Origin: an uncultured Bacilli bacterium | Lineage (GTDB): Bacteria; Bacillota_I; Bacilli_A; RF39; UBA660 | Assembly (NCBI GenBank): GCA_947627435.1 | Contig: CANQWB010000004.1 | Location: 19,331-51,330, forward strand | Length of the DNA: 32,000 nucleotides | Reading direction: 5' to 3' | Shown: positions 4,901 to 25,243 of the stretch, piece after piece | Layout of the letters: the number at the start of each line of letters is the position of its first letter | Position numbering within the stretch: position 1 is the first letter of the stretch | Made by a program: the position numbers and the translations under genes | Notes under the pieces: model-generated | Told to the model about the DNA's origin: nothing | The model's input: the letters and a program-made list of their open reading frames with translations, nothing else | Databases searched by the model: none

Positions 4901-4929
4901 ATAAAAAAAATCAATCATTACGATTGATT
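4901..4929 (-). terminator. intrinsic terminator after the VWA gene; left copy of a 29-30 nt direct repeat
   Basis: On the minus strand, AATCAATC-GTAAT-GATTGATT is followed by T8. The sequence ataaaaaaaatcaatcattacgattgatt recurs at 8919-8948 with one extra A. Confidence 0.7.
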
Positions 4930-4954
4930 GAAAATAAAATAATATGATATCAAC

Positions 4955-6355
4955 TTACTTCGTTTTTCCTTTTATCTCACCTGCTATTTGACAATGATAT
5001 AATTGATTCAGTTGATGATCATCTATATAAATTACTTTACCACCTGGTGGATGAATTTTACGTCCACCAAAGACAATCCAAATCGCATCGATTGAAGTAT
5101 TAGGCATATTTGCTTGTCCATCAGTAAAAATGATCTTATTTTCTACTCTTTTAGTAAATGAATTTACTGCAGTATCAAAGTTCGTTCCGCCTCCACCATA
5201 CAATTTTAAATTATCAATATCTGATAGCGTTTTGATTTCTGTAAATCCATAAAACATGGTATCAAAACAGCCTACTTTCACTTTAGAAGTTGGTAATATA
5301 TTTTTACATTCCCTTAAAAAATTTTTAACAAGTGTTTCATTTATAGAACCACTTGTATCTAAAATAATTTCTGTTTCTGGTCTTGTTATTTCTTCTAAAT
5401 ATGCGGTTACTACACCATCTTCTATCCCCGCATTTTGATATGACCAATCAACGTCATATGTAATTGCCTCTTTTAACAATGTTCTCCAATCAAAAAGTGG
5501 TTTAGCTGTTCCAATATCCGTAATATTTCTTGTTTCACTATTTGTCATACTTCCATGGCCATGTGATTGACTAGCTAATGATTTTCTTAATTCTTCTAGT
5601 TGCTTTTTTCTTTCTAATTTATTTTGCTTAAATGCTTCTTTTTCACCAATTTTTGTTAATTCTTTCGCTTCTTCATTCTTTTCATTTTCTGAATTAAGAT
5701 TTTGCATTTTACTAGATTGTTCTTCTTGATGTTTCTTCTCTATTGCCTTATCCCACATAGCATGCGTATCATGTCCAACATCGCAAGTTTCGTTTTCTTC
5801 GCTTTTAGAAGAAGTGGAAGATGACTCTAAATTACTTTTTTGATTTTGACTTTGACTATTTTGATGATTAGAACTTTCCATGTTTGCATTTGAAAAACCT
5901 TTCCCATTTTGCTTTTGTTGTTCTAAATTAGTATTTTTTGTATCATTACCTTGCCCACTATTTTGTTGCTTTTCTTTTAAAAGTTTTTGATACATTTCTT
6001 CTGCATCATAATGGATTGCCTCTGGAGTATCAACTGCACCTTCTATGATAGATAATCCATCTTGTTTAAGAAAAGCATTGATAACGGAATCAGTAGCAAT
6101 ATTCCATAAATTTTGATCTTTACCTTCACTTCTCACAATATGATTAAATGCAATATGACATATTTCATGTGCGAAAATAAATACTTGTTGATCGTCAGTA
6201 ATCGATTCCATAAAGTTAGAATTATAATAAATATTTGTACCATCCGTTCCAGCTGTTCCTACGGATGTTTTTGAAATAAAGTTGGAATGCACTACTACAC
6301 TTCCAAAAAGAGGATACTTAACTAATAATTTTCTTTTCATTGATTCTAAATTCAT
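4955..6355 (-). CDS. Zincin-like metallopeptidase domain (DUF2201_N-like) fused through a long low-complexity linker to a VWA/MIDAS domain (DUF2201-like)
   Basis: 466-aa ORF. Its RBS AAGGA overlaps the stop codon of the upstream gene. The N-terminus reads LFGSVV...GTAGTDGTNIYYN...FIFAHEICHIAFNH...WNIATDSVINAFL, with the HExxH at 6155-6169. Residues about 125-275 form a Q/N/S/E/K-rich linker. The C-terminus reads ILDTSGS (the DxSxS MIDAS motif at 5345-5359)...GGGGTNFD...IIFTDGQA, which is typical of a VWA fold. Confidence 0.75.
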   Translation of the reverse strand: MNLESMKRKLLVKYPLFGSVVVHSNFISKTSVGTAGTDGTNIYYNSNFMESITDDQQVFIFAHEICHIAFNHIVRSEGKDQNLWNIATDSVINAFLKQDGLSIIEGAVDTPEAIHYDAEEMYQKLLKEKQQNSGQGNDTKNTNLEQQKQNGKGFSNANMESSNHQNSQSQNQKSNLESSSTSSKSEENETCDVGHDTHAMWDKAIEKKHQEEQSSKMQNLNSENEKNEEAKELTKIGEKEAFKQNKLERKKQLEELRKSLASQSHGHGSMTNSETRNITDIGTAKPLFDWRTLLKEAITYDVDWSYQNAGIEDGVVTAYLEEITRPETEIILDTSGSINETLVKNFLRECKNILPTSKVKVGCFDTMFYGFTEIKTLSDIDNLKLYGGGGTNFDTAVNSFTKRVENKIIFTDGQANMPNTSIDAIWIVFGGRKIHPPGGKVIYIDDHQLNQLYHCQIAGEIKGKTK

Positions 6356-6364
6356 AAGACATCC

Positions 6365-6766
6365 TTAAATTTGCGCTAAAAGGGAATAAACTTCTTCATT
6401 CACCTTATTTGCACTCAGATCTGAGCAAGTAACAATCACCAAACAATTTTTAGGTAATTCAAATGTGCTAATTTTTTTATATTTTAATATTTCAATAAAT
6501 TTAGTTTGTTCTTCTAATGCAATTTCATTGATATTCTCAATGACCAAAGCAGTAGGATTTGTTTTACTTTTTTCGATTAACTCTTGATACCACGTTGGAG
6601 GACAAAAATTGGTATTTTCATAATGTCCATTTAATTCTGCTTTTTCAATATTTGATTTTATTATCACTGAAGAACGAAAAAAATTTGAAGGTATATTTTC
6701 AATCAATAACGGAGATACACCAGATTGAATATAATTCTTTAATAAATCTAATCTTTCTTGATTCAT
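6365..6766 (-). CDS. Truncated, catalytically degenerate AAA+ (MoxR-like) paralogue of the upstream ATPase core
   Basis: 133-aa ORF. Its ATG overlaps the upstream stop (ATGA at 6763-6766). It aligns by eye with residues about 360-430 of the 641-aa ATPase. The small ORF reads CPPTWYQELIEKSKTNP-TALVIENINEIALEEQTKFIEIL...LPKNCLVIVTCSD. The ATPase reads VPPTWYSRVLEKCKAEPNKIHIIFFDELTNALPSIQ...LPTNARIVAAGND. The P-loop position reads LLIENIPSNFFRS (no GK[ST]), and the Walker B DE is replaced by EN. Confidence 0.6.
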   Translation of the reverse strand: MNQERLDLLKNYIQSGVSPLLIENIPSNFFRSSVIIKSNIEKAELNGHYENTNFCPPTWYQELIEKSKTNPTALVIENINEIALEEQTKFIEILKYKKISTFELPKNCLVIVTCSDLSANKVNEEVYSLLAQI

Positions 6767-8688
6767 CTTGTCATTCCTCCTTGTGATAAGTTATCCTTCA
6801 TTTGTATTTCTGCAAGGTGTTCTAATCTTTTTTCATCACCATGTGTCCACATAGATTCAAAGGCAGCTCTTGGCTCTGCACCTATTTGTTTCATAAAATC
6901 TCTGACTACTTCAAAATGTTCATCATCAACAGAAGATAAACCTACTGCGGTTGCGAATTTTTGTGATATATCCATTTCTAAATCGACATCTGAATAATTG
7001 TGCTGAATAACATCTTCTACACTTATGACTTGCTGTTTTACAAAAGCTGTAAAATCCCATGTTAACTCGTCCCCTATTAGTGCTCTTAACATTGTTGGCT
7101 GTTTCGTTTTATAAAGTAATTTAGATGCCATTTCCCATTTTCTTGGATCTGCATTTGGTTTATCTCCAGTATAAGGAGTTCTTAATACATCATAACCACT
7201 GTAAGATTTATACGCTATATAAGCATAAATGGCAGGATGAATTTTTGCATCTAGTTTCTCTTCTTGATAGTCTAACCTTTCATATTTTTCTTTAGGCGTA
7301 GATGCCCATCGCAACCAACTATCTACTGTAGTATGAATATAAACATGAGCAAATCTGTTAAATAATGGTTCAGCCATTTGATTAGCCGCTAATGAATCAT
7401 TCAAATCGTTTCCTGCGGCAACGATTCTAGCATTTGTTGGTAATTTCCATTTACCATTTACTTCACCATCTAAAACAATATTAAATGCCATACCCTGTAT
7501 AGAAGGAAGTGCATTGGTTAATTCATCAAAAAAGATAATATGAATTTTATTTGGTTCTGCTTTACATTTTTCTAATACGCGTGAATACCATGTTGGTGGT
7601 ACATCAATCATTTCTCCCTTTTCCGCATTATAAACACTTTTTCCATTTAAACTATCAGGAGTTGCATTTCTCATATATATAATTTCACAATCTGGATCCA
7701 ACTGTTTTACTCTTGCAGATTTACCTTCGCTTGATTTACCATGTAAGAATACTGAAATATTACTTTCTACTGCTCCTCTTATGATATCTTCTTCTGATAC
7801 TTTATCAAAATGAAAGCCATAAGGATTTTGTTTTCTGACAGATTCTTTTCCTTCTACAATTAATATATTCGATTTCTTTTCTCCTTCTGAATTTTGTGTT
7901 TGCTCTAATTGGTTGTTTTTTAAAACGCTATTAGAAACGATTTCTTTTGAAAAATAACGATCCATAAATTGTTTGATATCCGTTTTATCAAAATCACCAT
8001 TATAAGTTTCGTCATTTTTAAATTGTACTCCAGAAAAAAGAATTTTCTTGGAAAGTGCTATATCAGCTTTTTCATCAACCAACCAAATAATTGGTTCTAC
8101 ACGTACCCAACGTACGTCTCCTAACTTAACCCGTCTACCATCAGACAAAATTTCTTCAGCACAGTTTTGATCTACCACAAAACGAATATATCTTTTTCCA
8201 TCATATTCATATTCAATATGTTGTCTGTCTTGAAAACTTATACTATAATCGTTAACTTGAACTGAGTCCGTCGTGTATTTTCTACCTGTAGTTCTTAAAT
8301 ATCCAGTATAGTATCTGTTTTCTAATAAAGTTTTCAAATGATAGTTATCAACAATTGTTTGTGGATATTCGCCATATGCAACTTCTAACACTCCACTATT
8401 TTCTCTCCCTTTGTACGAAGAGATAGATTGGATGGAAGAATAAGGTAAAGCTGGGCGTGCCCCACCAGTACGTCCCTGAATATTGCTCCAACAATAACTA
8501 CCATTCGTGTCAACGTTCCATGCATTACCTGTCCACCAAAAACCAGTAGTATAATCTTCTGATGACACATAACCACCTAATAAAATCGCAAAATCAGTGA
8601 TAGCACATTTGGTACCATATTTATCAAATATATCTAATCTAGAGTTTCCAAAAATAAGGTCATCAGTTAAAAAAGTACAATTAGTCAT
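6763..8688 (-). CDS. AAA+ ATPase (MoxR/AAA_5-like core) with a ~260-aa N-terminal non-ATPase domain (DUF6273-like motifs) and a ~190-aa C-terminal extension
   Basis: 641-aa ORF with RBS AGGTGGTG. Walker A is GKSSEGKS (7717-7740), and I verified the codons GGT AAA TCA AGC GAA GGT AAA TCT. Walker B is IIFFDE (7522-7539). Sensor-1-like ARIVAAGN and PLFNRFAHV are present. The N-terminal 260 aa read AITDFAILLGG...GFWWTGNAW...GGARPALPY, then AYGEYPQT...VEPIIWLVDEKADIALSKKILFSG. There is no signal peptide or TM segment. Confidence 0.75.
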   Translation of the reverse strand: MTNCTFLTDDLIFGNSRLDIFDKYGTKCAITDFAILLGGYVSSEDYTTGFWWTGNAWNVDTNGSYCWSNIQGRTGGARPALPYSSIQSISSYKGRENSGVLEVAYGEYPQTIVDNYHLKTLLENRYYTGYLRTTGRKYTTDSVQVNDYSISFQDRQHIEYEYDGKRYIRFVVDQNCAEEILSDGRRVKLGDVRWVRVEPIIWLVDEKADIALSKKILFSGVQFKNDETYNGDFDKTDIKQFMDRYFSKEIVSNSVLKNNQLEQTQNSEGEKKSNILIVEGKESVRKQNPYGFHFDKVSEEDIIRGAVESNISVFLHGKSSEGKSARVKQLDPDCEIIYMRNATPDSLNGKSVYNAEKGEMIDVPPTWYSRVLEKCKAEPNKIHIIFFDELTNALPSIQGMAFNIVLDGEVNGKWKLPTNARIVAAGNDLNDSLAANQMAEPLFNRFAHVYIHTTVDSWLRWASTPKEKYERLDYQEEKLDAKIHPAIYAYIAYKSYSGYDVLRTPYTGDKPNADPRKWEMASKLLYKTKQPTMLRALIGDELTWDFTAFVKQQVISVEDVIQHNYSDVDLEMDISQKFATAVGLSSVDDEHFEVVRDFMKQIGAEPRAAFESMWTHGDEKRLEHLAEIQMKDNLSQGGMTR

Positions 8689-8953: not shown

Positions 8954-10561
8954 TTATGATTTTCTAAAACGAGAAAGTACTTGTTTCAATATTCCACTTT
9001 TAATTACAGTTACTCCATATACAATGACGCCAAGCACTGTATAGAATAACACTTTAATAATGGCTATCATGCGGCTTTCTGTAGTAACAGGTATGAATCT
9101 TCCTATAATTTTTAAACTTACATACATAATCAGTGTAGAAAGAATGATTTTTAAAATCATATAGAAAGTATTTCCAAATACAATTTTATGTTTATGCTTT
9201 AACTGATATAATACAATCGCAATCACAATTCCTTGTGCAATTATAGTTGCTATACTAGGTCCATAATAAGATTCCATACCCATGATATGACATAAATACA
9301 TAATAGGAATATTTAAAATCACTTTTAATAAAAATCCAAACAATAAACTTCCAAGCGCTACTTTAGTATCATTCATCGTTTGCACAATATTGAGTAAAAT
9401 GGTCATACAACAAAATGTCAAAGCTTGAAAAATAAAAAGGGAAAAAATAGAACTACATATAGAATCTGCCCCATAGAAAATAGTCCATACAGAATCTGCT
9501 AAAAAAGAAAGTCCAAAAACCATTGGCAATACAAAAAATAACAATACTTGTAAAGCTGCTTTGATTTTAATACTCACTTCTGTCATATTTTGATTGACAT
9601 AAGCACTTGCGATATTAGGAACTAAACTCATACTAATTCCAAGCGCAATAGATATGACTATCATATTTAATTTTGTGCCCCAAGTATTTAATACCCCTAT
9701 AACACTTTCAGCAATACTGGCTTCATATCCAAGTTGCGTCAACGTTTTGACAACGGTAAAGGTATCTACTAAAGAAAACGCCGATTTACATAAATCAATT
9801 GCTAAAAAAGGAAACGCATAGAAAATAATTTTTTTCACAATCACTTGATTGGTTATTTTTGCTTCATTTCTAGTTATTTTCGGATGACAATATAATTCTT
9901 CTTTGTGATGATATATTTTTGATCCTAAATATAAATACGCAATAATGGCACCTGCAGTCGCACCAAATACAGCTACCCCTACAGCGGTATCAATGGATAC
10001 ATGAAATACCTTTAAAGCCAATAAACTGCCAAGTAGAATCACGCTCACGCGCACAAGTTGTTCTAAGACATTTGCTTTACTCACGCTATCCATCATTTGA
10101 TGTCCCTGTAAATATCCTTTGGTAACACTAAATATTGGTACAATCAATAAAGAAGTAGAAATAATGCGAATTACCATGGTGACACTTTGCACTGTATTTC
10201 CACCAGTTAAATTACCCAAAATCAAATGGGCAAGAGTTGGTGCAGAAATCATCATAATCAAATACAGTACAAATGATAATGCTGTAATTACAAGTAAACC
10301 TATCTTATATACTCGTTCTTTACTATTTTGATATTGTAATGTTTGATATTCACTTACAAGTTTGGAAATCGCAATTGGAATCCCACTAGTTGATAAACTC
10401 AAAAAAACGGCATAAATAGAATAAGCATAGCTATAAAGAGCGCCTCCCCGACTTCCTACCATAGAATAAAAGGGAATCACATAGAGTAATCCTATCATTT
10501 TACAAATGATAATTCCGATGGTGGCAATCAATGCACCTTCTAAAAAATTACTTTTTTTCAT
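8954..10561 (-). CDS. MOP-superfamily flippase (MurJ/SpoVB/YtgP-like polysaccharide or lipid II flippase)
   Basis: 535-aa polytopic membrane ORF. The N-terminus KSNFLEGALIATIGIIICKMIGLLYVIPFYSMVG...ALYSYAYSIYAVFLSLSTSGIPIAISKLVSE is typical of the YtgP/SpoVB subgroup. The RBS GAGG lies after the stop of the small upstream ORF. Confidence 0.75.
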   Translation of the reverse strand: MKKSNFLEGALIATIGIIICKMIGLLYVIPFYSMVGSRGGALYSYAYSIYAVFLSLSTSGIPIAISKLVSEYQTLQYQNSKERVYKIGLLVITALSFVLYLIMMISAPTLAHLILGNLTGGNTVQSVTMVIRIISTSLLIVPIFSVTKGYLQGHQMMDSVSKANVLEQLVRVSVILLGSLLALKVFHVSIDTAVGVAVFGATAGAIIAYLYLGSKIYHHKEELYCHPKITRNEAKITNQVIVKKIIFYAFPFLAIDLCKSAFSLVDTFTVVKTLTQLGYEASIAESVIGVLNTWGTKLNMIVISIALGISMSLVPNIASAYVNQNMTEVSIKIKAALQVLLFFVLPMVFGLSFLADSVWTIFYGADSICSSIFSLFIFQALTFCCMTILLNIVQTMNDTKVALGSLLFGFLLKVILNIPIMYLCHIMGMESYYGPSIATIIAQGIVIAIVLYQLKHKHKIVFGNTFYMILKIILSTLIMYVSLKIIGRFIPVTTESRMIAIIKVLFYTVLGVIVYGVTVIKSGILKQVLSRFRKS

Positions 10562-17195: not shown

Positions 17196-19349
17196 TTATA
17201 CAGACTTTTCTAATAAAGAAAGAGAAACTTTATTTTTGTCTAAGAAGATTTCATCGACATAACAATCGACAATATCTCCTACATTTACAACTTCCATTGG
17301 ATGTTTAATATAATGATTTGTTAATTTAGAAATATGAGCTAAACCATCATTTTTAAGACCAATATCAATAAATACTCCAAAGTCTACAACATTGCGTACA
17401 GTTCCTTGTAATTTCATTCCCACTTTTAAATCTTCAATATGCAAAATATCACTTCTTAGAATTGGTGCTGGCATTTGGTCACGTGGATCACGGTTTGGTT
17501 TCTTTAAATCTTCTATGATATCCGTAATGGTATATAGATCTGTATTTAAACTACTTGCCATTTGATTGACATCGACTTGATTTAAAGTTTCCACAAATGG
17601 AAAAGTTCCCATTTGTTCTAATTCTAAATGCAATTCTTCTAATAATTTTCGTGTCAGAGCATAACTTTCTGGATGAATAGCAGTACGATCTAATAAATCG
17701 GTAGCATCTGGAATTCGTAAAAAGCCAATCGCTTGTTCATAAGTTTTATCCGTTAATATTTTATTTTTATTTAATTCTTCTCGCGATACGAACTTACCAT
17801 GTTGATCACGGTATGCAATTAATTTATCAATATGTTTTTTGGTAATTCCAGAAACATATTTAAGTAAACTAGGACTTGCAGTATTGATATTGACACCAAC
17901 CTGATTTACCACTTTTTGTACGACAAAATCTAGCGATTCTGATAAACGTTTATTGGATACATCATGTTGATATAATCCAACACCAATACTTTCAGGATCA
18001 ATTTTAACAAGTTCTGAAAGAGGATCTTGTAAACGTCTTCCAATACTAATAGCACTTCGCTCTTCCACATGTAAATCTGGAAATTCTGAGATAGCAAGCT
18101 TAGATGCCGAATACACACTAGCCCCTGCTTCACTGACAATAATATATTCTACTTTACGAGTTGCAGATTGAATCACATCAGCAATAAAAGCTTCACTTTC
18201 ACGACTAGCAGTTCCATTACCAATCGCAATAATATCAATATGATATTGATCAATTAAATTTAAGACTGTCTGTTTGCTCTTTTCGTATTCATTTTTTGGT
18301 TCATGGGGATAGATGACAGAAATAGCAAGTTTCTTTCCTGTTGGATCAATAACAGCTAACTTACAGCCAGTTCGATATGCAGGATCAAATCCTAATACCA
18401 TTTTATCCTTCATGGGTGGTTGTAATAACAATTTTTCTAAGTTGTTTCCAAAGTTTTGAATTGCAACTTCTTCGGCTTTTTCTGTTAAATCCGCACGAAT
18501 TTCACGTTCAATACTAGGTGCAACCAAACGTTTATAACTATCTTGGATCGCCTGTTTTACTTCTGAGCAAACAAAAGATGCTTCATTTTTGATAATTTTC
18601 GATTCTAAAAATGCAAGAATTGGTTCTACTTCAACCACAATGGAAACAGATAATACTTTTTCATTTTCACCGCGATTTAAAGCAAGCACACGGTGTGGTT
18701 TTACTTGTTTCACTGTTTCTTTATAGTCGTAATACATCTCATATATTTTCATTTCATCTTTAGCATCTTTTTTTACCTTAGATTCTATTACACCATTATG
18801 ATACATATAACTACGAATCCATTTACGATAATAAGCATTATCGCTAAACCATTCTGCCATAATATAACGAGCACCTTCTAAAGCGGATTCTACTGTTGCA
18901 ACTTTTTCATTTATAAAACGCGTTGCTAGACTGATCATATCACCTGTTGTTGGAAAAGATAATATCATTTTCGCAAGAGGTTCTAATCCTAAAGCAATGG
19001 CTTCTGTAGCTTTTGTTTTTTTCTTTTCTTTATAAGGTCGATATAAGTCTTCTATTTCTACCAATTTACCTGCTTTTTCAATTTTTTCTTTGAGTTCTTC
19101 TGTCAACATTCCTTTTTCGTCAATCAAACGAATGACATCTTCTTTTCTTTTTTGAAGATTGACTTGATATGCATATACTTCATTGATTTTTCGGATTTGT
19201 TCTTCATCTAAAGCACCTGTTACTTCTTTACGGTAACGAGCAATAAAAGGAATTGTATTTCCTTGTTCTAACAATTGTAGTGTTGCTTCTACTTGTTTAT
19301 TTTTTACATTTAATGTTTCACATATATTTTGAATAATTTCTTGATTCAT
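17196..19349 (-). CDS. tex: Tex-like transcription accessory protein (YqgF/RuvC-like, HhH and C-terminal S1 domains)
   Basis: 717-aa ORF. The N-terminus IPFIARYRKE is the Tex signature. GFDPAYRTGCKLAVID is the YqgF-like part. The C-terminal S1 domain reads GMKLQGTVRNVVDFGVFIDIGLKNDGLAHISKL. Confidence 0.9.
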   Translation of the reverse strand: MNQEIIQNICETLNVKNKQVEATLQLLEQGNTIPFIARYRKEVTGALDEEQIRKINEVYAYQVNLQKRKEDVIRLIDEKGMLTEELKEKIEKAGKLVEIEDLYRPYKEKKKTKATEAIALGLEPLAKMILSFPTTGDMISLATRFINEKVATVESALEGARYIMAEWFSDNAYYRKWIRSYMYHNGVIESKVKKDAKDEMKIYEMYYDYKETVKQVKPHRVLALNRGENEKVLSVSIVVEVEPILAFLESKIIKNEASFVCSEVKQAIQDSYKRLVAPSIEREIRADLTEKAEEVAIQNFGNNLEKLLLQPPMKDKMVLGFDPAYRTGCKLAVIDPTGKKLAISVIYPHEPKNEYEKSKQTVLNLIDQYHIDIIAIGNGTASRESEAFIADVIQSATRKVEYIIVSEAGASVYSASKLAISEFPDLHVEERSAISIGRRLQDPLSELVKIDPESIGVGLYQHDVSNKRLSESLDFVVQKVVNQVGVNINTASPSLLKYVSGITKKHIDKLIAYRDQHGKFVSREELNKNKILTDKTYEQAIGFLRIPDATDLLDRTAIHPESYALTRKLLEELHLELEQMGTFPFVETLNQVDVNQMASSLNTDLYTITDIIEDLKKPNRDPRDQMPAPILRSDILHIEDLKVGMKLQGTVRNVVDFGVFIDIGLKNDGLAHISKLTNHYIKHPMEVVNVGDIVDCYVDEIFLDKNKVSLSLLEKSV

Positions 19350-19361
19350 AATTTCCTCTTT

Positions 19362-20183
19362 CTATTTTTGACATTTAGGACAATAATAAGTACCTCTACC
19401 ACCTACTGTGATTTTTTGAATGGTTGTTCCACAATACCTACATGGTTCTCCTTCTTTTCCATGGACAAATAAATTTTGTTGAAAACGTCCATGCACACCT
19501 TCACTCGATTCATAACTACGAATGGTAGTTCCTCCTTTAATAATCGCATCTGTCAATACTTGTCTTGTATTTTGAATGATTTTTTCTAATTCTTTTGGTT
19601 TCACTTGATTACTTTTTTTCGTAGGTTTTATTTTACTTAAAAAAAGAATTTCATTCGCATAAATGTTCCCAATTCCTGCAATGATACTTTGATCTAACAA
19701 ACTGGTTTTAATAGGAATTATTTTTTGTTTTAATTTTTTTTGTAAATAAGATACCGTTAAATGGGCATCCCATGGTTCTAATCCTAAATCTATCAATGGT
19801 GGTAAATTCCATACTTTTTCTTTTTCTATCAAATGCATACGACCAAATTTACGTGTATCTTTATAGCGCAATTCTTCTCCAGTATCTAGGATGAAAGCAA
19901 TATGTTCATGTTTATCCATGTCATCTCCTTGGGTACGGAAAACATATCTACCTTCCATACGCAGATGGCTGAGTAAATAATAATGGTCTAATTCCAATAA
20001 CAGCCATTTGCCTCTTCGTTCTAAATTATGAATGGTTTCTCCTACAATTTGATGAACAAACTCTTGTGCAGTTGGTGTTTCAATCAATTTTGGATAAGAT
20101 AGCAAGACCCCTACGATTTTACGATTGATGAGCTTTTTCTTTAACGCTTCTTTTACAGTTTCTACTTCTGGTAATTCTGGCAT
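19362..20183 (-). CDS. mutM: Formamidopyrimidine-DNA glycosylase
   Basis: I set the start at the ATG at 20183 so that the protein begins MPELPEVETV. The catalytic N-terminal Pro requires this start. The C-terminal zinc finger is CRYCGTTIQKITVGGRGTYYCPKCQ. The RBS is AGGTGA. Confidence 0.9.
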   Translation of the reverse strand: MPELPEVETVKEALKKKLINRKIVGVLLSYPKLIETPTAQEFVHQIVGETIHNLERRGKWLLLELDHYYLLSHLRMEGRYVFRTQGDDMDKHEHIAFILDTGEELRYKDTRKFGRMHLIEKEKVWNLPPLIDLGLEPWDAHLTVSYLQKKLKQKIIPIKTSLLDQSIIAGIGNIYANEILFLSKIKPTKKSNQVKPKELEKIIQNTRQVLTDAIIKGGTTIRSYESSEGVHGRFQQNLFVHGKEGEPCRYCGTTIQKITVGGRGTYYCPKCQK

Positions 20184-20255
20184 AATATCACCTAATTTAT
20201 AGTTTACCATAAATCATGTCGATTTGTAATTGGTAATAAAAAGAAAAAGAGTAAA

Positions 20256-21214: not shown

Positions 21215-22339
21215 TTATTTTATGGTACGTGTGAGTACATGTTGTTTTTCTTGATTCAGTTGTTTTTCCAAAGCAATTACTTCATCATAAGTTAATGTTG
21301 TTTTGTTCTCTAAATCTCCTGTCAAATATGGTGTGATGTCATTAATAGTTTCAATATCACCAGGATGATAATCACCTAATGATTCTATAAATTCACGATT
21401 AGATGATGTAAATTTTTCAATATAAAGTGGTTGTGAATCTCCTTGAGTATCGTATTTTTTTTGATATTCATAAACTGGTTCAAACCTACATTTAATTGCA
21501 TTTTCTGGATTAGAAATACTATATACATACCTAACTCTATGATTTGTATCTGCATTTTCAAGATCAGGATTTTCATACAATTCTACGTATAGATTAGCAT
21601 ATATGATAAAATATTGATCATGATATTTGAATATTTTTAACAGTTTTGAATCATAAGTTAAAATGTTAAAGTAATTGTATATATTATAAGTGGGCTCTCC
21701 TAATATTTGTTCAATATTTTTCAAATCTTCAACGCTATAAGTACTTTGAAGATCGTATTCTTTTGGCATGATAAAATCCATTGTACCAGCAATTGTAACG
21801 GGATTTAAGAGAGCTGTTTGCACTGTATAATCTGGCACTGACAATCCTAATAAATTGCTATATAATACAGGAATATTGCTACAAGAATTTAATATATCAC
21901 CATCATAAACATATTCATATTGTTGATAAAATAAATTAGGATTTGTAACACTTAAATATGAAGTTTGTGATACACTATAATCATTAAAATATCCTGGAGC
22001 ATTAAAATATTCTGTTCCTTCAAAATTTCCCTCTACAAAATGATATTGTGGATGACCAGATCCATCATTGATTACAATAATATCCAGTTCTGTTGGTTTA
22101 TAATCTTGTTGCAAAGAAGCAACTAACAATTTATTTTGTTGTTCTAACAAATCTAATCTCTGTAAAATAGATTCTTCAATATTCTCAGAGTATAAAATTT
22201 CTTTTAAACTTTCATTTTCCTCTGATAAACTTTCTATTGTACTTTCTGCATCCGTTTCGTTCGTTTTACCACAACTACTCAAACCTAGTGTTGTTGCAAG
22301 TCCAAACAATAATAATTTCTTTTTATAATGGTTCATCAT
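21215..22339 (-). CDS. hypothetical lipoprotein
   Basis: 374 aa with RBS AGGGGGA. The signal peptide has a lipobox (LATTLGLSS-C-GK). The mature part is Y/N/E-rich, and I recognise no motif in it. Confidence 0.7.
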   Translation of the reverse strand: MMNHYKKKLLLFGLATTLGLSSCGKTNETDAESTIESLSEENESLKEILYSENIEESILQRLDLLEQQNKLLVASLQQDYKPTELDIIVINDGSGHPQYHFVEGNFEGTEYFNAPGYFNDYSVSQTSYLSVTNPNLFYQQYEYVYDGDILNSCSNIPVLYSNLLGLSVPDYTVQTALLNPVTIAGTMDFIMPKEYDLQSTYSVEDLKNIEQILGEPTYNIYNYFNILTYDSKLLKIFKYHDQYFIIYANLYVELYENPDLENADTNHRVRYVYSISNPENAIKCRFEPVYEYQKKYDTQGDSQPLYIEKFTSSNREFIESLGDYHPGDIETINDITPYLTGDLENKTTLTYDEVIALEKQLNQEKQHVLTRTIK

Positions 22340-22419
22340 TTATCCCCCTAACATGAAACTTTTTTAATTATACATAAATAAATTTTTTATGTCAACGTTT
22401 TTTTGTAATCACAGTTTTG

Positions 22420-22459
22420 CCACTCATATAAGGTTGTAATGCTTTTGATATTAGAATAC
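22420..22459 (-). repeat. left copy of a 40-nt imperfect direct repeat; displaced relic of the serS 3' end
   Basis: ccactcatataaggttgtaatgcttttgatattagaatac is compared with 23730-23769, ccacccatataaggctgtaatgcttttggtattagaatac (37/40 identical). Read on the minus strand and continued to a TGA at 22392-22394, it encodes ILISKALQPYMSGKTVITKKR*. That is a plausible SerRS C-terminus. Confidence 0.8.
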
Positions 22460-22490
22460 AAGATAACATACAAAAAAACATATAAGATAA

Positions 22491-22519
22491 TTGACTATTA
22501 TTGTTTTCTTTAGTATAAT
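22491..22519 (+). promoter_or_regulatory. sigma-A type promoter of the Fic gene
   Basis: TTGACT (22491-22496), a 17-nt spacer, and TATAAT (22514-22519). It lies about 28 nt upstream of the ATG at 22547. Confidence 0.6.
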
Positions 22520-22546
22520 AATAGTATTATAAATGAGGTGATTTTA

Positions 22547-23539
22547 ATGAACAAATATACTCCACCTTTTGAAATAACAAATAAAATGCTCGACTTAGTT
22601 GCTTCCATAATGAAAAAAATAGGAAAATTAGATAATTATAAAGATTTAAGTAAATTACCAATTTTAAGAAGAAACAATCGCATTCACTCTATACATTCTT
22701 CGCTTGCGATAGAAGATAATTCTTTATCTTTTAAAGAAGTAAAAGATATTATCGATGGAAAAATAGTTGTTGGTAATCAAAGAGAAATACAAGAAGTAAA
22801 AAATGCTTATAAAGCCTATGAAATGATGAAACAAATAAATCCATATTCTATAAAAGATTTAAAAAAAATTCATGGCATAATGACTTTTTTAACAGTTCAA
22901 GAATCAGGAGAATTTAGAAAGGGTAATGAAGGAGTTTTCGATGGAGATAAATGTATTCATATGTGTCCGAAACCTGAAATGGTAAATTCACTTATGGAAC
23001 AGTTATTTGATTGGATGAAGAAAAATAAAAATACTATTCACCCTTTAATATTATCATCAGTATTTCACTATGAATTTGTTTTTATTCACCCATTTAGTGA
23101 TGGAAATGGAAGAACTGTAAGATTATGGCAAAACATACTGTTATCTAATTGGGAAAATATCTTTGAATATGTTCCAATAGAATCTCAAATAAAAGAATAT
23201 CAGGATGAATATTATAAAACAATCAATAACTGCAATTTAAAAGGAAATTCAACTGAATTTATTGAATTTATGTTAAAAATGATTGATGAAATTTTAGAAA
23301 GTTTAATGGAAAGTACAACAATTGAAGCAAACCATATTAGTATTTATGTTAAAAAGTTGTTAAATATAATGGAAGAACAACCAGCTATGACAACCAAAGA
23401 ATTAATGGATAAATTAGGACTAAAATCAAGATTATCATTTAGAAAAAATTATATAGATCCAGCTCTTGCAAATGGTCTTATAAAAATGACAAATCCAGAA
23501 AAACCAACTAGTAAAAATCAACGTTATTATAAAGTTTAA
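22547..23539 (+). CDS. Fic-family protein (probable AMP/nucleotidyl transferase) with an N-terminal inhibitory-helix motif and a C-terminal wHTH-like tail
   Basis: I set the start at the ATG at 22547, which has GAGGTG 6 nt upstream. The track's GTG start lies inside that RBS. The Fic active-site motif HPFSDGNGRTVR is at 23087-23122. The upstream motif SSLAIEDN (22700-22717) fits the (S/T)xxxE inhibitory motif. Confidence 0.9.
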   Translation: MNKYTPPFEITNKMLDLVASIMKKIGKLDNYKDLSKLPILRRNNRIHSIHSSLAIEDNSLSFKEVKDIIDGKIVVGNQREIQEVKNAYKAYEMMKQINPYSIKDLKKIHGIMTFLTVQESGEFRKGNEGVFDGDKCIHMCPKPEMVNSLMEQLFDWMKKNKNTIHPLILSSVFHYEFVFIHPFSDGNGRTVRLWQNILLSNWENIFEYVPIESQIKEYQDEYYKTINNCNLKGNSTEFIEFMLKMIDEILESLMESTTIEANHISIYVKKLLNIMEEQPAMTTKELMDKLGLKSRLSFRKNYIDPALANGLIKMTNPEKPTSKNQRYYKV

Positions 23540-23704
23540 GCAATAAAGAAGAAACAATCATTTTCATTTTTATTGTAACTAAAAATATGTCAATAAATAT
23601 AAGTAAATAAAAGAAGTAATATAATAGTTCTTCAATGTTTTTGAAAGATCATTTATATATACTTCTTTTTTTAATAAACAGCTAACTTTTTTGTACACGA
23701 ATAC

Positions 23705-24988
23705 TTAGTTCTTCTCTATCTTTTCTATTCCACCCATATAAGGCTGTAATGCTTTTGGTATTAGAATACTTCCGTCTTCTTGATAATTGTTTTCTATGAG
23801 AGCAATGAGTCCTCTTGGAGTAGCTAATACCGTGTTATTTAAAGTTGAAACTAAATAGTTGCCATTTTCCCCCTTAGCTCGAATACTTAATCTTCTTGCT
23901 TGCGCATCTCCTAAAGTAGAACATGATCCAACTTCGAAATATTTTTGTTGTCTTGGACTCCATGCTTCAACATCACAAGATTTTACTTTTAAATCGGCCA
24001 AATCACCACTACAACATTCCAGTGTTCTAACTGGAACATCTAAACTTCTAAAAAATTCTACCGTATAACTCCACATCTTATTATACCATTCCATAGCGTC
24101 TTCAGGTTTACATAAAACAACCATTTCTTGTTTTTCAAATTGATGTACACGATAAAGTCCTCTTTCTTCCAATCCATGAGATCCTACTTCTTTTCTAAAA
24201 CATGGTGAATAAGAAGTAAGAGCAAGTGGAAGTTCTTCTTCTTTTATCAATTGTCCTTTAAACTTACCAATCATAGAATGTTCACTCGTACCAATTAAGT
24301 ATAAATCTTCATTTTCAATTTTATACATCATAGCATCCATTTCCGCAAAAGACATAACACCATTCACAACATCACTACGAATCATAAATGGAGGTACACA
24401 ATAAGTAAAACCTTTATCAATCATAAAATCCCTTGCATAACTAATCATAGCAGAATGTAATCTTGCAATATCGCCCATTAAATAATAGAAACCATTACCA
24501 CTGGTTCTACCAGCACTTTCTTTATCTAATCCATTCAAAGCTTCACAAATATCAGCATGATGGGGAATTTCGTAATTTGGAACAAGCGGTTCGCCAAAAC
24601 GTTCTATTTCAACATTCTCACTATCATCCTTTCCAATTGGAACACTGTCATCAATGATGTTTGGAATTGTCATCATAATTTTTGTAATTTGAGCATCCAA
24701 TTCTTCTACTTGTTTCGTTAAAACATCAATTGTATCTCCATATTTTGCGACTTCTTGTTTGATTGCCTCTGCTTCTTCTTTTTTGCCATCACGCATAAAT
24801 GCACCAATCTCTGCACTCTTACGATTACGGTCTGCTCGCAAACGTTCCATTTCCATCAATTGGTCTTTTTTTTGATCATACAATTCGACTACTTGATCAA
24901 CAAGTGGTAATTTCTCGTCTTGAAATTTTTTACGAATATTTTCTTTTACTTTCTCACTATTTTCTTTTAAAAATTTAATATCGATCAT
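23705..24988 (-). CDS. serS: Seryl-tRNA synthetase
   Basis: 427 aa. The N-terminus is the coiled-coil tRNA-binding arm (MIDIKFLKEN...). The class II core contains GTSEHS, FRKEVGSHG, RVHQFEKQE and GSCSTLGDAQARR. A Ser-specific T-box lies upstream. Confidence 0.95.
   Translation of the reverse strand: MIDIKFLKENSEKVKENIRKKFQDEKLPLVDQVVELYDQKKDQLMEMERLRADRNRKSAEIGAFMRDGKKEEAEAIKQEVAKYGDTIDVLTKQVEELDAQITKIMMTIPNIIDDSVPIGKDDSENVEIERFGEPLVPNYEIPHHADICEALNGLDKESAGRTSGNGFYYLMGDIARLHSAMISYARDFMIDKGFTYCVPPFMIRSDVVNGVMSFAEMDAMMYKIENEDLYLIGTSEHSMIGKFKGQLIKEEELPLALTSYSPCFRKEVGSHGLEERGLYRVHQFEKQEMVVLCKPEDAMEWYNKMWSYTVEFFRSLDVPVRTLECCSGDLADLKVKSCDVEAWSPRQQKYFEVGSCSTLGDAQARRLSIRAKGENGNYLVSTLNNTVLATPRGLIALIENNYQEDGSILIPKALQPYMGGIEKIEKN
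23730..23769 (-). repeat. right copy of the 40-nt imperfect direct repeat (inside the functional serS 3' end)
   Basis: See 22420-22459. This copy encodes ILIPKALQPYMGG of the intact serS. Confidence 0.8.
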
Positions 24989-25012: not shown

Positions 25013-25205
25013 AATAAAAAAGCTATTAGTATAGGAGCATTTGATGCGGTACCATCCTACTAATAACTTACTTTAGATAACGGTATTACCGGAAATGTTT
25101 ACATTTCTCTTGAGAGTAGATTCATAAACAATTATGATTCGTTTGCATCAACCACGAACTTTCTTCTACATAACTCATTTATTACTAGTCTCTCATCACT
25201 GATTT
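25013..25205 (-). promoter_or_regulatory. T-box riboswitch leader with a serine (UCU) specifier, upstream of serS
   Basis: Read on the minus strand. The K-turn region is GATGAGAGAC. AGTA is followed by helix ATAAATGA/TTGTTTAT. The specifier loop is GAA-TCT-A, with the codon being the complement of 25118-25120. The F-box CCGTTA is present. The T-box core is AGGATGGTACCGC (about 25046-25058). The antiterminator is TAGGA[TGGTACC]GCAT-CAA-ATGC-TCCTA, followed by GCTTTTTTATT. Confidence 0.85.
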
Positions 25206-25243
25206 ATAGTTTTATTTTAACATATTAAACCTAGATAGTCAAT

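Follow-up and report, generated by a model that had tools for sequence, protein, structure and literature searches.

A Fic gene between two copies of the seryl-tRNA synthetase gene end in an uncultured Bacilli bacterium

How does a single toxin-like gene come to stand between the 3' end of an essential gene and a second, displaced copy of that same end? The locus that raises this question belongs to an uncultured Bacilli bacterium (GenBank assembly GCA_947627435.1, contig CANQWB010000004.1, forward strand, positions 19,331 to 51,330) whose genome is present in rabbit-gut samples. We call the whole stretch of 32,000 nucleotides that was analyzed the window, and coordinates given without a locus label refer to it; related loci and individual proteins are cited by L and P numbers. 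In the window the gene for seryl-tRNA synthetase (SerRS), serS, is convergent with a Fic-family gene, beyond which lies a stranded piece of serS. The initial annotation took this arrangement for the footprint of a site-specific integrating element that targets the 3' end of serS and brings a replacement end with it. On balance we consider it somewhat probable that the locus is instead a serS-anchored recombination hot spot for single, mostly defence-like cassettes, which would move by homologous and illegitimate recombination.

The serS ends and the Fic cassette

The serS gene is intact. According to the list of open reading frames (ORFs) it occupies 23705-24988 on the minus strand and encodes 427 amino acids, matched by the Pfam families Seryl_tRNA_N and tRNA-synt_2b; the product is 94% identical to P0122, its closest relative in a large protein collection, in which the next SerRS proteins reach 88-89%. 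The product ends in ILIPKALQPYMGGIEKIEKN (given in the feature list as PYMGGIEKIEKN), with GGIEKIEKN as its final residues. The stretch 23730-23769, in-frame serS codons for (S)ILIPKALQPYMGG, is the proximal copy of a 40-nt direct repeat whose distal copy, likewise on the minus strand, lies at 22420-22459. The two copies agree at 37/40 positions (93%) with a spacing of 1310. A repeat search found this to be the longest close direct repeat of the region and also of the whole window, and a search allowing three mismatches returned these two copies only; matches were given by 0/100 shuffled sequences and 0 are expected by chance, which rules out a chance origin.

Read onward, the distal copy continues as a SerRS tail. 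The minus-strand translation of 22457 to 22392 is ILISKALQPYMSGKTVITKKR followed by a stop, of which 22392-22419 supply (G)KTVITKKR and an old TGA stop codon (22392-22394). The distal copy and this tail align with the native serS end of the related locus L179 over 71 nt at 82%, extending outside the repeat and across the stop codon, including the post-stop TTGACAT; in L179 the native tail GGKTVIKK and its stop are followed by TTGACAT...TATAAT and then by the next ORF, with no Fic gene. Because the alignment runs past the old stop codon, the comparison shows the distal copy to be a real, displaced ancestral serS end, and the initial annotation was right on this point, as it was, in its description of the locus, on every detail that could be checked, among them the repeat and its spacing, the two tails, the Fic gene and the spacer described below. 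Related proteins end in GGKTVIKK (P0124) or GGKTEITIK (P0126), and the same type recurs in a displaced fragment of locus L175, so that, to judge from these sequences, GGKT(V/E)I.. is the ancestral SerRS tail type of the clade. The twelve nucleotides at 22448-22459 (ATATTAGAATAC) also end the Fic cassette of locus L084, whose serS is without that sequence; for this reason only about 28 of the 40 nt (22420-22447) and the 27-nt tail are certainly derived from serS.

The stranded end carries two amino acid replacements, P to S, which falls in the part common to the cassette end, and G to S, which lies inside the conserved PYMGG motif and fits a loss of constraint on coding. The overlap of the old stop codon with the predicted -35 box of the next gene's promoter is probably at least part of the reason why the remnant persists. 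This promoter (TTGACA-17-TATAAT, 22367-22395, minus strand, 12/12 consensus positions in a promoter scan) has the same layout as the sequence after the L179 serS stop and is predicted to serve a 374-aa lipoprotein-like ORF (21215-22339, minus strand), which has no Pfam match and a weak match to a lipoprotein signal peptide.

The tail with which serS now works, IEKIEKN and its stop codon (23705-23729, minus strand), belongs to what we call the KEKI type. Since GGKT(V/E)I.. is the tail type taken as ancestral for the clade, the working tail was presumably imported from elsewhere. At the DNA level it is closest to the serS tail of the Fic-bearing locus L083 (89.7% over 58 nt and 92% over the last 36 nt), despite an identity of only 75% between the bodies of the two genes. 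The idea that this tail marks the element uniquely was considered and rejected, given that native KEKIEKK tails of loci without Fic score 86-89%; the match is suggestive only. Between the convergent stops of Fic and serS lies a spacer of 165 nt (23540-23704) with a long hairpin at about 23611-23667, which could be a terminator for both genes; the fold of 23590-23710 on the minus strand has -19 kcal/mol with a z of -2.05. This hairpin (AAGAAGTAT...TACTTCTT) is homologous to hairpins that follow serS in loci L084, L017 and L048, and the spacer of locus L081 holds a palindromic motif found in L048 ahead of AAA_14 genes. From these shared elements, the proximal tail and spacer of the window appear to derive from genomes whose serS already preceded such cassettes.

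The Fic-family gene (22547-23539, plus strand, ATG at 22547 and stop at 23539) encodes 330 amino acids with a class II Fic domain (PF02661, E 4e-21) and a C-terminal winged-helix domain (PF21247, Fic-like_C). Its catalytic motif HPFSDGNGRTVR fits HxFx(D/E)GNGRxxR and aligns with HPFADGNGRMGR of PDB 4RGL, which the protein matches at E 1e-76; it also matches FICD. The N-terminal inhibitory-helix motif SLAIED aligns with SLAIEN of 4RGL, so that the glutamate is kept and the last position is D where (S/T)xxxE(G/N) is the pattern, and this intramolecular glutamate is likely a brake on the enzyme. The PADLOC model of SoFic matches nearly full length (2.6e-42), and the NCBIfam SoFic equivalog scores only 59 bits against a cut-off of 550. 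SoFic has been described as a single-gene abortive-infection anti-phage toxin, a class II Fic protein that AMPylates its targets (PMC12249575); downstream of the window gene we found no small ORF resembling the AS1 antitoxin of that study. By analogy, the Fic protein is most likely an autoinhibited AMP-transferase acting as an abortive-infection toxin.

The gene has its own predicted promoter (22456-22519, plus strand), in which TTGACT (22491-22496) and TATAAT (22514-22519) stand 17 nt apart and agree with the consensus at 11/12 positions in the promoter scan (22491-22519). Just 5' of the -35 box, Tandem Repeats Finder detected 2.9 copies of the 12-nt motif ATACAAGATAAC (22456-22490). Similar motifs, in three to four copies, are conserved across Fic cassettes at different sites: L180 (four copies, at about 4915-4966 by manual count), L165 (7901-7942), L168 and L099. 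Because the protein has a C-terminal winged-helix domain and the promoter repeats are conserved, the repeats may be an operator to which that domain binds in autoregulation.

Transfer of the cassette and other occupants of the slot

The Fic cassette is shown by sequence comparison to be foreign to these genomes and horizontally mobile. Fic homologues of 91-96% identity are convergent with serS in L081, L083 and L084, with different neighbouring genes. The synonymous divergence (dS) between the window and L081 is 0.41 for Fic and 1.26 for serS, and between the window and L084 it is 0.18 and 1.10; against L175, which has no Fic gene to compare, serS gives 0.88. As the dS of Fic is far below that of serS, the cassette entered these lineages after their divergence. 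At the protein level the window and L081 share 91% identity in Fic and 67% in SerRS, and at the DNA level about 90% across the cassette (about 22460-23545) and about 70% across serS. A fourth arrangement is seen in L180-L182, where a Fic copy of 80% identity abuts serS with a bidirectional terminator common to both genes and without serS duplication, which brings the genome backgrounds with convergent Fic and serS genes to at least four (the window, L084, L081/L083 and L180), each with different neighbours. Fic was convergent with serS in 0/80 metagenome copies at 77% identity or less, and lay beside serS in 0/80 GTDB species representatives with the most similar SerRS. A phage or plasmid origin was considered and set aside, as no relative of the cassette was found in IMG/VR contigs and phage and plasmid records stayed below 60% identity, the best at 45-51%.

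Other Fic copies lie away from serS. Those of 81-83% identity are found in L165, L168 and L183; the L165 copy (82%) sits between DUF2179 and infC beside a serine-recombinase pseudogene, and the L183 copy lies 5' of iscS-thiI. In L168 (9016-9081, and also in L169) a 66-nt tandem duplicate (97%) of the Fic promoter and 5' end directly follows the Fic stop and leads into a truncated second Fic start, with an AbiEii gene as neighbour. More distant cassettes (69-73%) are flanked by direct repeats of 38 nt in L115 (4860-4897/6029-6065) and 48 nt in L099 (578-625/3451-3498), which consist of the last codons of the upstream gene, a terminator hairpin or both and are unrelated to serS; the L099 insert also contains a DUF2130 gene.

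The genomes closest to the window at serS have no Fic gene. The contigs with the closest SerRS are syntenic with the window 3' of serS (serS-ORF-CDF-Fpg-Tex-...-radical SAM-DcuC); L175-L178 are also syntenic 5' of serS (polA, Na/Ca exchanger), and L179 is syntenic on the 3' side, its genes 5' of serS having no Pfam call. L175, L179, L186 and L188 lack Fic and more distant genomes carry it. The slot between serS and CDF holds unrelated genes in every relative examined: the ORFs directly after serS in the window, L175 and L179 are mutually unrelated, and L186 and L188 have other genes there by Pfam calls. The initial annotation had expected an empty site to show serS with its ancestral tail directly followed by the next gene. 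L179 bears this out, with its promoter and ORF after the native tail, and L175 does not, being occupied by other cargo and a remnant. In this closest relative (SerRS 94%), a KEKI-type tail ends serS and a displaced serS fragment with the old tail KTEIQKKK and its stop stands at 8339-8428 (also in L176-L178) behind an unrelated 337-aa ORF. A serS fragment and a replacement tail in a relative without Fic had been named in advance as a sign of local duplication unrelated to insertion; this came true by half in L175, which has both, around a different ORF. Because L175 has its own displaced fragment, the serS end was hit independently, or earlier, in the clade of the window; the displacement of the tail may thus predate Fic, with the locus serving as a hot spot of cargo exchange.

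To find further displaced fragments, we scanned loci for another stretch coding for the PYMGG motif and then used BLAST; extents are given in nt relative to the serS stop. In loci without Fic this revealed duplications around AAA_14/DUF4143 genes in L016 (113 nt, 99%, -110..+2) and L017 (136 nt, 94%, -141..-6, the tails differing), around an unknown 168-aa ORF in L061 (104 nt, 95%, -56..+47), around the 337-aa ORF, likewise unknown, in L175-L178 (90 nt, 91%, -131..-42). The duplications around Fic are those of the window (40 nt, 37/40, -64..-25) and L081 (119 nt, 95%, -131..-13); in L180 and L039 no serS duplicate was found. The recurrence shows the serS 3' end to be a repeated target of different single-gene cargo and, as the sequences suggest, a recombination hot spot. 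Five loci carry single-gene AAA_14/DUF4143 cassettes, of the PADLOC defence candidate class PDC-S01, directly 3' of serS (L016 2426-4034, L017 7143-8970, L039 7372-8684, L048 7368-8735, L180 3551-4863). Those of L017 and L039 are 90% identical against 78% for serS, which is the transfer signature seen for Fic. The promoter regions of these genes contain two copies of GTTTTTCCAATTCAACCAAAAAA or, in the L016/L048 type, a 36-nt palindrome. A 52-nt repeat in L016 was rejected as a second target duplication, since it matches the repeated palindromic motif that stands 5' of AAA_14 genes, for instance in L048. In L084, the stretch 2680-2705 may be a decayed remnant of serS, but at about 70% by manual count and with its low complexity it was not relied on.

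An orthologous distal serS fragment is present in both of the sister loci L081 and L083, and their copies differ in how closely they resemble the working gene: identity between copies is 95-96% in L081 (96% over 112 nt or 95% over 119 nt in two comparisons) against 81-82% in L083, which points to gene conversion between the serS copies. The L083 contig is of low coverage (5x), and its serS (7161-8446) is called as two ORFs of 190 and 230 aa, so that it is either a pseudogene or broken by a frameshift of the assembly. In-frame stops occur in the distal serS fragment of this locus.

Upstream of serS the window has a T-box leader (25030-25208, minus strand; Rfam RF00230, full model length, E 2.9e-17) whose 77.3 bits fall below the Rfam gathering score of 93; within the islet no Rfam family was found at its gathering score. 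The window lacks the Acetyltransf_3 gene that overlaps the start of serS in L175 and L186.

A second displaced gene end lies elsewhere in the window, as a 46-nt direct repeat of 78% identity (4631-4676/9034-9079). Its distal copy reads ESHMIAIVKVLFYT, a fragment of the C-terminal region (ESRMIAIIKVLFYT) of a Polysacc_synt/MurJ-like gene (8954-10561, minus strand). The genes between the copies (4955-8688) encode proteins of 641 and 133 aa without Pfam match and a 466-aa protein with DUF2201_N and DUF2201, and 0/3 have a PADLOC match.

Recombination, integration or inheritance

The absence of an integrase between the repeats, part of the initial annotation, was upheld and widened. The window has 22 non-overlapping ORFs of at least 100 aa, of which 20 were scanned with Pfam, and no recombinase was found between the repeats or among the scanned ORFs; the ORFs at 17196-19349 and 19362-20210 were assigned by synteny to Tex and Fpg of L175, and polA was matched by tblastn only. 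The gene calls of L081, L083, L084, L175-L179, L180 and L186-L188 likewise contain no recombinase. The only trace of one near any cassette is what is left, with a broken reading frame, of the zinc-ribbon region of a large serine recombinase (read by eye) right after Fic in L165 (9030-9440), at a site other than serS. In the assembled contigs of public runs (Logan) we saw no in-register excision or empty-site joint; a joint from 22447 to 23927 near the repeats was out of register with side support of 35 nt and was discarded. At the distal junction the cassette end ATATTAGAATAC overlaps the serS sequence GTATTAGAATAC by 11 nt (22449-22459). Across 22448-22459, 11/12 nt match the serS of the window, and the repeat mismatch at 22448 is the base of the cassette. 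It is because 11 of 12 nt of an L084-type cassette end match serS that we read this single junction as one of microhomology, whose length of up to 11 nt is among the longest usually seen. A crossover breakpoint inside serS was sought by sliding identity against L175, L179 and L084, which shows no clear step.

From these observations we propose that the slot between serS and CDF gains and exchanges self-contained single-gene cassettes with their own promoters in this clade of uncultured gut Bacilli. The incoming DNA would have consisted of a foreign or allelic serS 3' end (KEKI tail and terminator) with a convergent SoFic-type Fic cassette. On one side it would have joined by homologous recombination inside serS, and on the other by an illegitimate joint at the microhomology of 11 nt (GTATTCTAATA) within the 3' end of the resident serS, or alternatively by recombination with a serS fragment already displaced by an earlier event. 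The outcome would be an intact serS with a replacement tail and the ancestral last 22 codons stranded 1.3 kb downstream, after which the two serS copies could act as homology arms for gene conversion, cargo swap and onward transfer without a dedicated integrase. The pathway (RecA-type together with illegitimate joining) and the route of DNA entry are what we infer.

Several observations weigh against this proposal. Only a few kb of flank were inspected per related locus, and an integrase elsewhere in these genomes is possible. Homologous recombination works poorly over 40 nt that contain mismatches. The existing serS repeats all overlap in a 32-nt core (-56..-25) that codes for IPKALQPYMGG, and the starts of three independent distal fragments (-131 to -141) fall into a span of about 10 nt; the common core and the nearly equal starts would also be explained by a site-specific recombinase with its core there. 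As a KEKI-type tail and a separate displaced fragment are also present in L175, the order of events may be read in two ways, with Fic arriving together with the displacement of the tail or by a later exchange of cargo. It is in our estimate unlikely that the duplicated serS ends, rather than being scars, form the functional parts of an integrase-free mobile unit, in which single defence genes (Fic, AAA_14/DUF4143 and others) would be framed by copies of the best-conserved part of an essential gene, or that an undescribed recombinase reads the IPKALQPYMGG core. If an integrase-free unit of this kind were real, host recombination could loop cassettes out and into the serS of distant species and leave serS unharmed.

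As the main alternative, we give some weight, short of thinking it likely, to a minimal or decayed integrative element whose attachment site, attP, comprises the last 40-140 nt of serS and the replacement tail, mobilized by a tyrosine integrase in trans. The imperfect direct repeats that flank the insert, the replacement tail that repairs serS, the targeting of serS by different cargo in several diverged lineages and the 32-nt core of all duplications, three of them starting near -131/-141, would all follow from it, and so would the KEKI-type tail and AAGAAGTAT..TACTTCTT terminator common to loci with different cargo (the window, L084, L017 and L048). Against it, neither the window nor the inspected flanks yielded an integrase or excisionase, and the boundaries and lengths of the repeats vary by locus, L180 and L039 having no repeat. 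The same Fic cassette occurs at non-serS sites with unrelated flanking repeats of 38-48 nt, no close homologue of it was found in viral contigs, phage records or plasmids, and our literature search found no paper describing serS as an attachment or integration site. The classical integrase footprint is disfavoured because neither a recombinase gene nor a single fixed att boundary was seen. Of the site-specific element first proposed, then, the flanking repeats, the displaced ancestral tail, the foreign mobile cassette and the recurrent serS target stand, whereas fixed att boundaries are not supported and the cassette also sits at unrelated sites.

An insertion activity carried by the cassettes themselves, for example an AAA_14/DUF4143 nuclease-ATPase of the PD-(D/E)XK type that cuts near gene ends or terminators and leaves long, variable duplications, strikes us as improbable. 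AAA_14/DUF4143 genes lie directly 3' of serS in L016, L017, L039, L048 and L180 and, in L168 and L180, beside Fic; the PD-(D/E)XK domains include DUF4143 (PMC3424549), and the cassettes have sharp ends, from promoter repeats to stop codon, with target duplications of 38-136 nt that often include terminators. Yet the Fic genes of the window, L081, L083 and L084 have no AAA_14 gene nearby, L168 and L180 encode AAA_14 proteins without sequence relationship to each other, and membership of PDC-S01 accounts for AAA_14 in the hot spot without a role in mobility; we know of no insertion mechanism of this type. The idea that the linkage of Fic and serS with its duplicated end is ancestral to the clade and was mostly lost is scarcely credible. 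Fic does adjoin serS in four backgrounds, and L180 is tidy and without duplication. However, the dS of Fic (0.18-0.41) is much lower than that of serS (0.88-1.26), and on this ground vertical inheritance was rejected; in addition, 0/80 species representatives with the most similar SerRS carry Fic beside serS, and the closer L175, L179, L186 and L188 are without Fic while more distant genomes have it.

The spread of small defence islets without mobility genes is poorly explained, and the serS locus offers a concrete, repeated case. Self-contained defence-type genes travel here between gut Bacilli whose SerRS proteins are only 67-75% identical, the essential serS gene survives the insertion because a spare tail comes along, and the duplicated gene ends could promote the next exchange. 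If this were general, conserved gene ends would be natural landing pads for defence genes, and hot spots in metagenomes could be recognized by a simple signature, namely housekeeping genes with displaced C-terminal fragments.

Comparison with known systems

Genomic islands, integrative and conjugative elements (ICEs) and prophages integrate at the 3' ends of genes and restore them by a copy carried in attP, as ICESt3 does in fda and as tRNA-targeting islands do. As in those islands, the gene in the window is intact with a new 3' end, the old end lies beyond the insert and direct repeats flank it. Unlike them, the insert is a cassette of one gene and 1.1 kb without integrase or excisionase, the serS repeats vary in extent or are absent, and the cargo varies while the structure is constant.

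In CdiA/Rhs toxins, displacement of C-terminal regions leaves "orphan" modules behind. Sequential displacement of type VI secretion (T6SS) effector genes has been reported in Vibrio cholerae (PMC5361080). The serS locus resembles both in that the incoming DNA would recombine in the conserved part and bring a new 3' end with linked cargo, the old 3' end being left downstream, with a piece of the conserved part, as a non-functional remnant. It differs in that serS encodes an essential housekeeping enzyme whose tail has no known functional role, and in that the cargo, instead of being a cognate immunity gene, is an unrelated convergent gene of defence type. A further parallel is homology-facilitated illegitimate recombination (PMC3240628), which likewise combines a homologous anchor, here serS, with a joint at short microhomology and variable junctions and places foreign DNA beside a conserved gene; unlike in that process, the duplicated serS anchor could also support homologous exchange with two arms.

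The minimal mobile elements (MMEs) of Neisseria, and chromosomal hot spots of horizontal gene transfer, are integrase-free and lie between conserved core genes. The serS-CDF slot is like MMEs in holding varied cargo between the same core genes without mobility genes, and unlike them in that the border lies inside the coding sequence of a core gene and duplicated gene ends are left. The Fic protein shares with SoFic (PDB 4RGL, 3EQX) the HxFx(D/E)GNGRxxR core, the inhibitory-helix glutamate and the C-terminal winged helix, and departs from it in the score of 59 against 550 bits, in SLAIED where SoFic has E(G/N) and in having no AS1-like ORF; its role in defence is suggested by analogy. What seems unusual in the serS locus is that an essential aminoacyl-tRNA synthetase gene has its coding end used again and again, together with a single-gene, promoter-bearing cargo of defence type and no mobility gene across many independent loci. 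By analogy, the outcome resembles that of islands which target gene 3' ends, and the process resembles C-terminal displacement combined with homology-facilitated illegitimate recombination.

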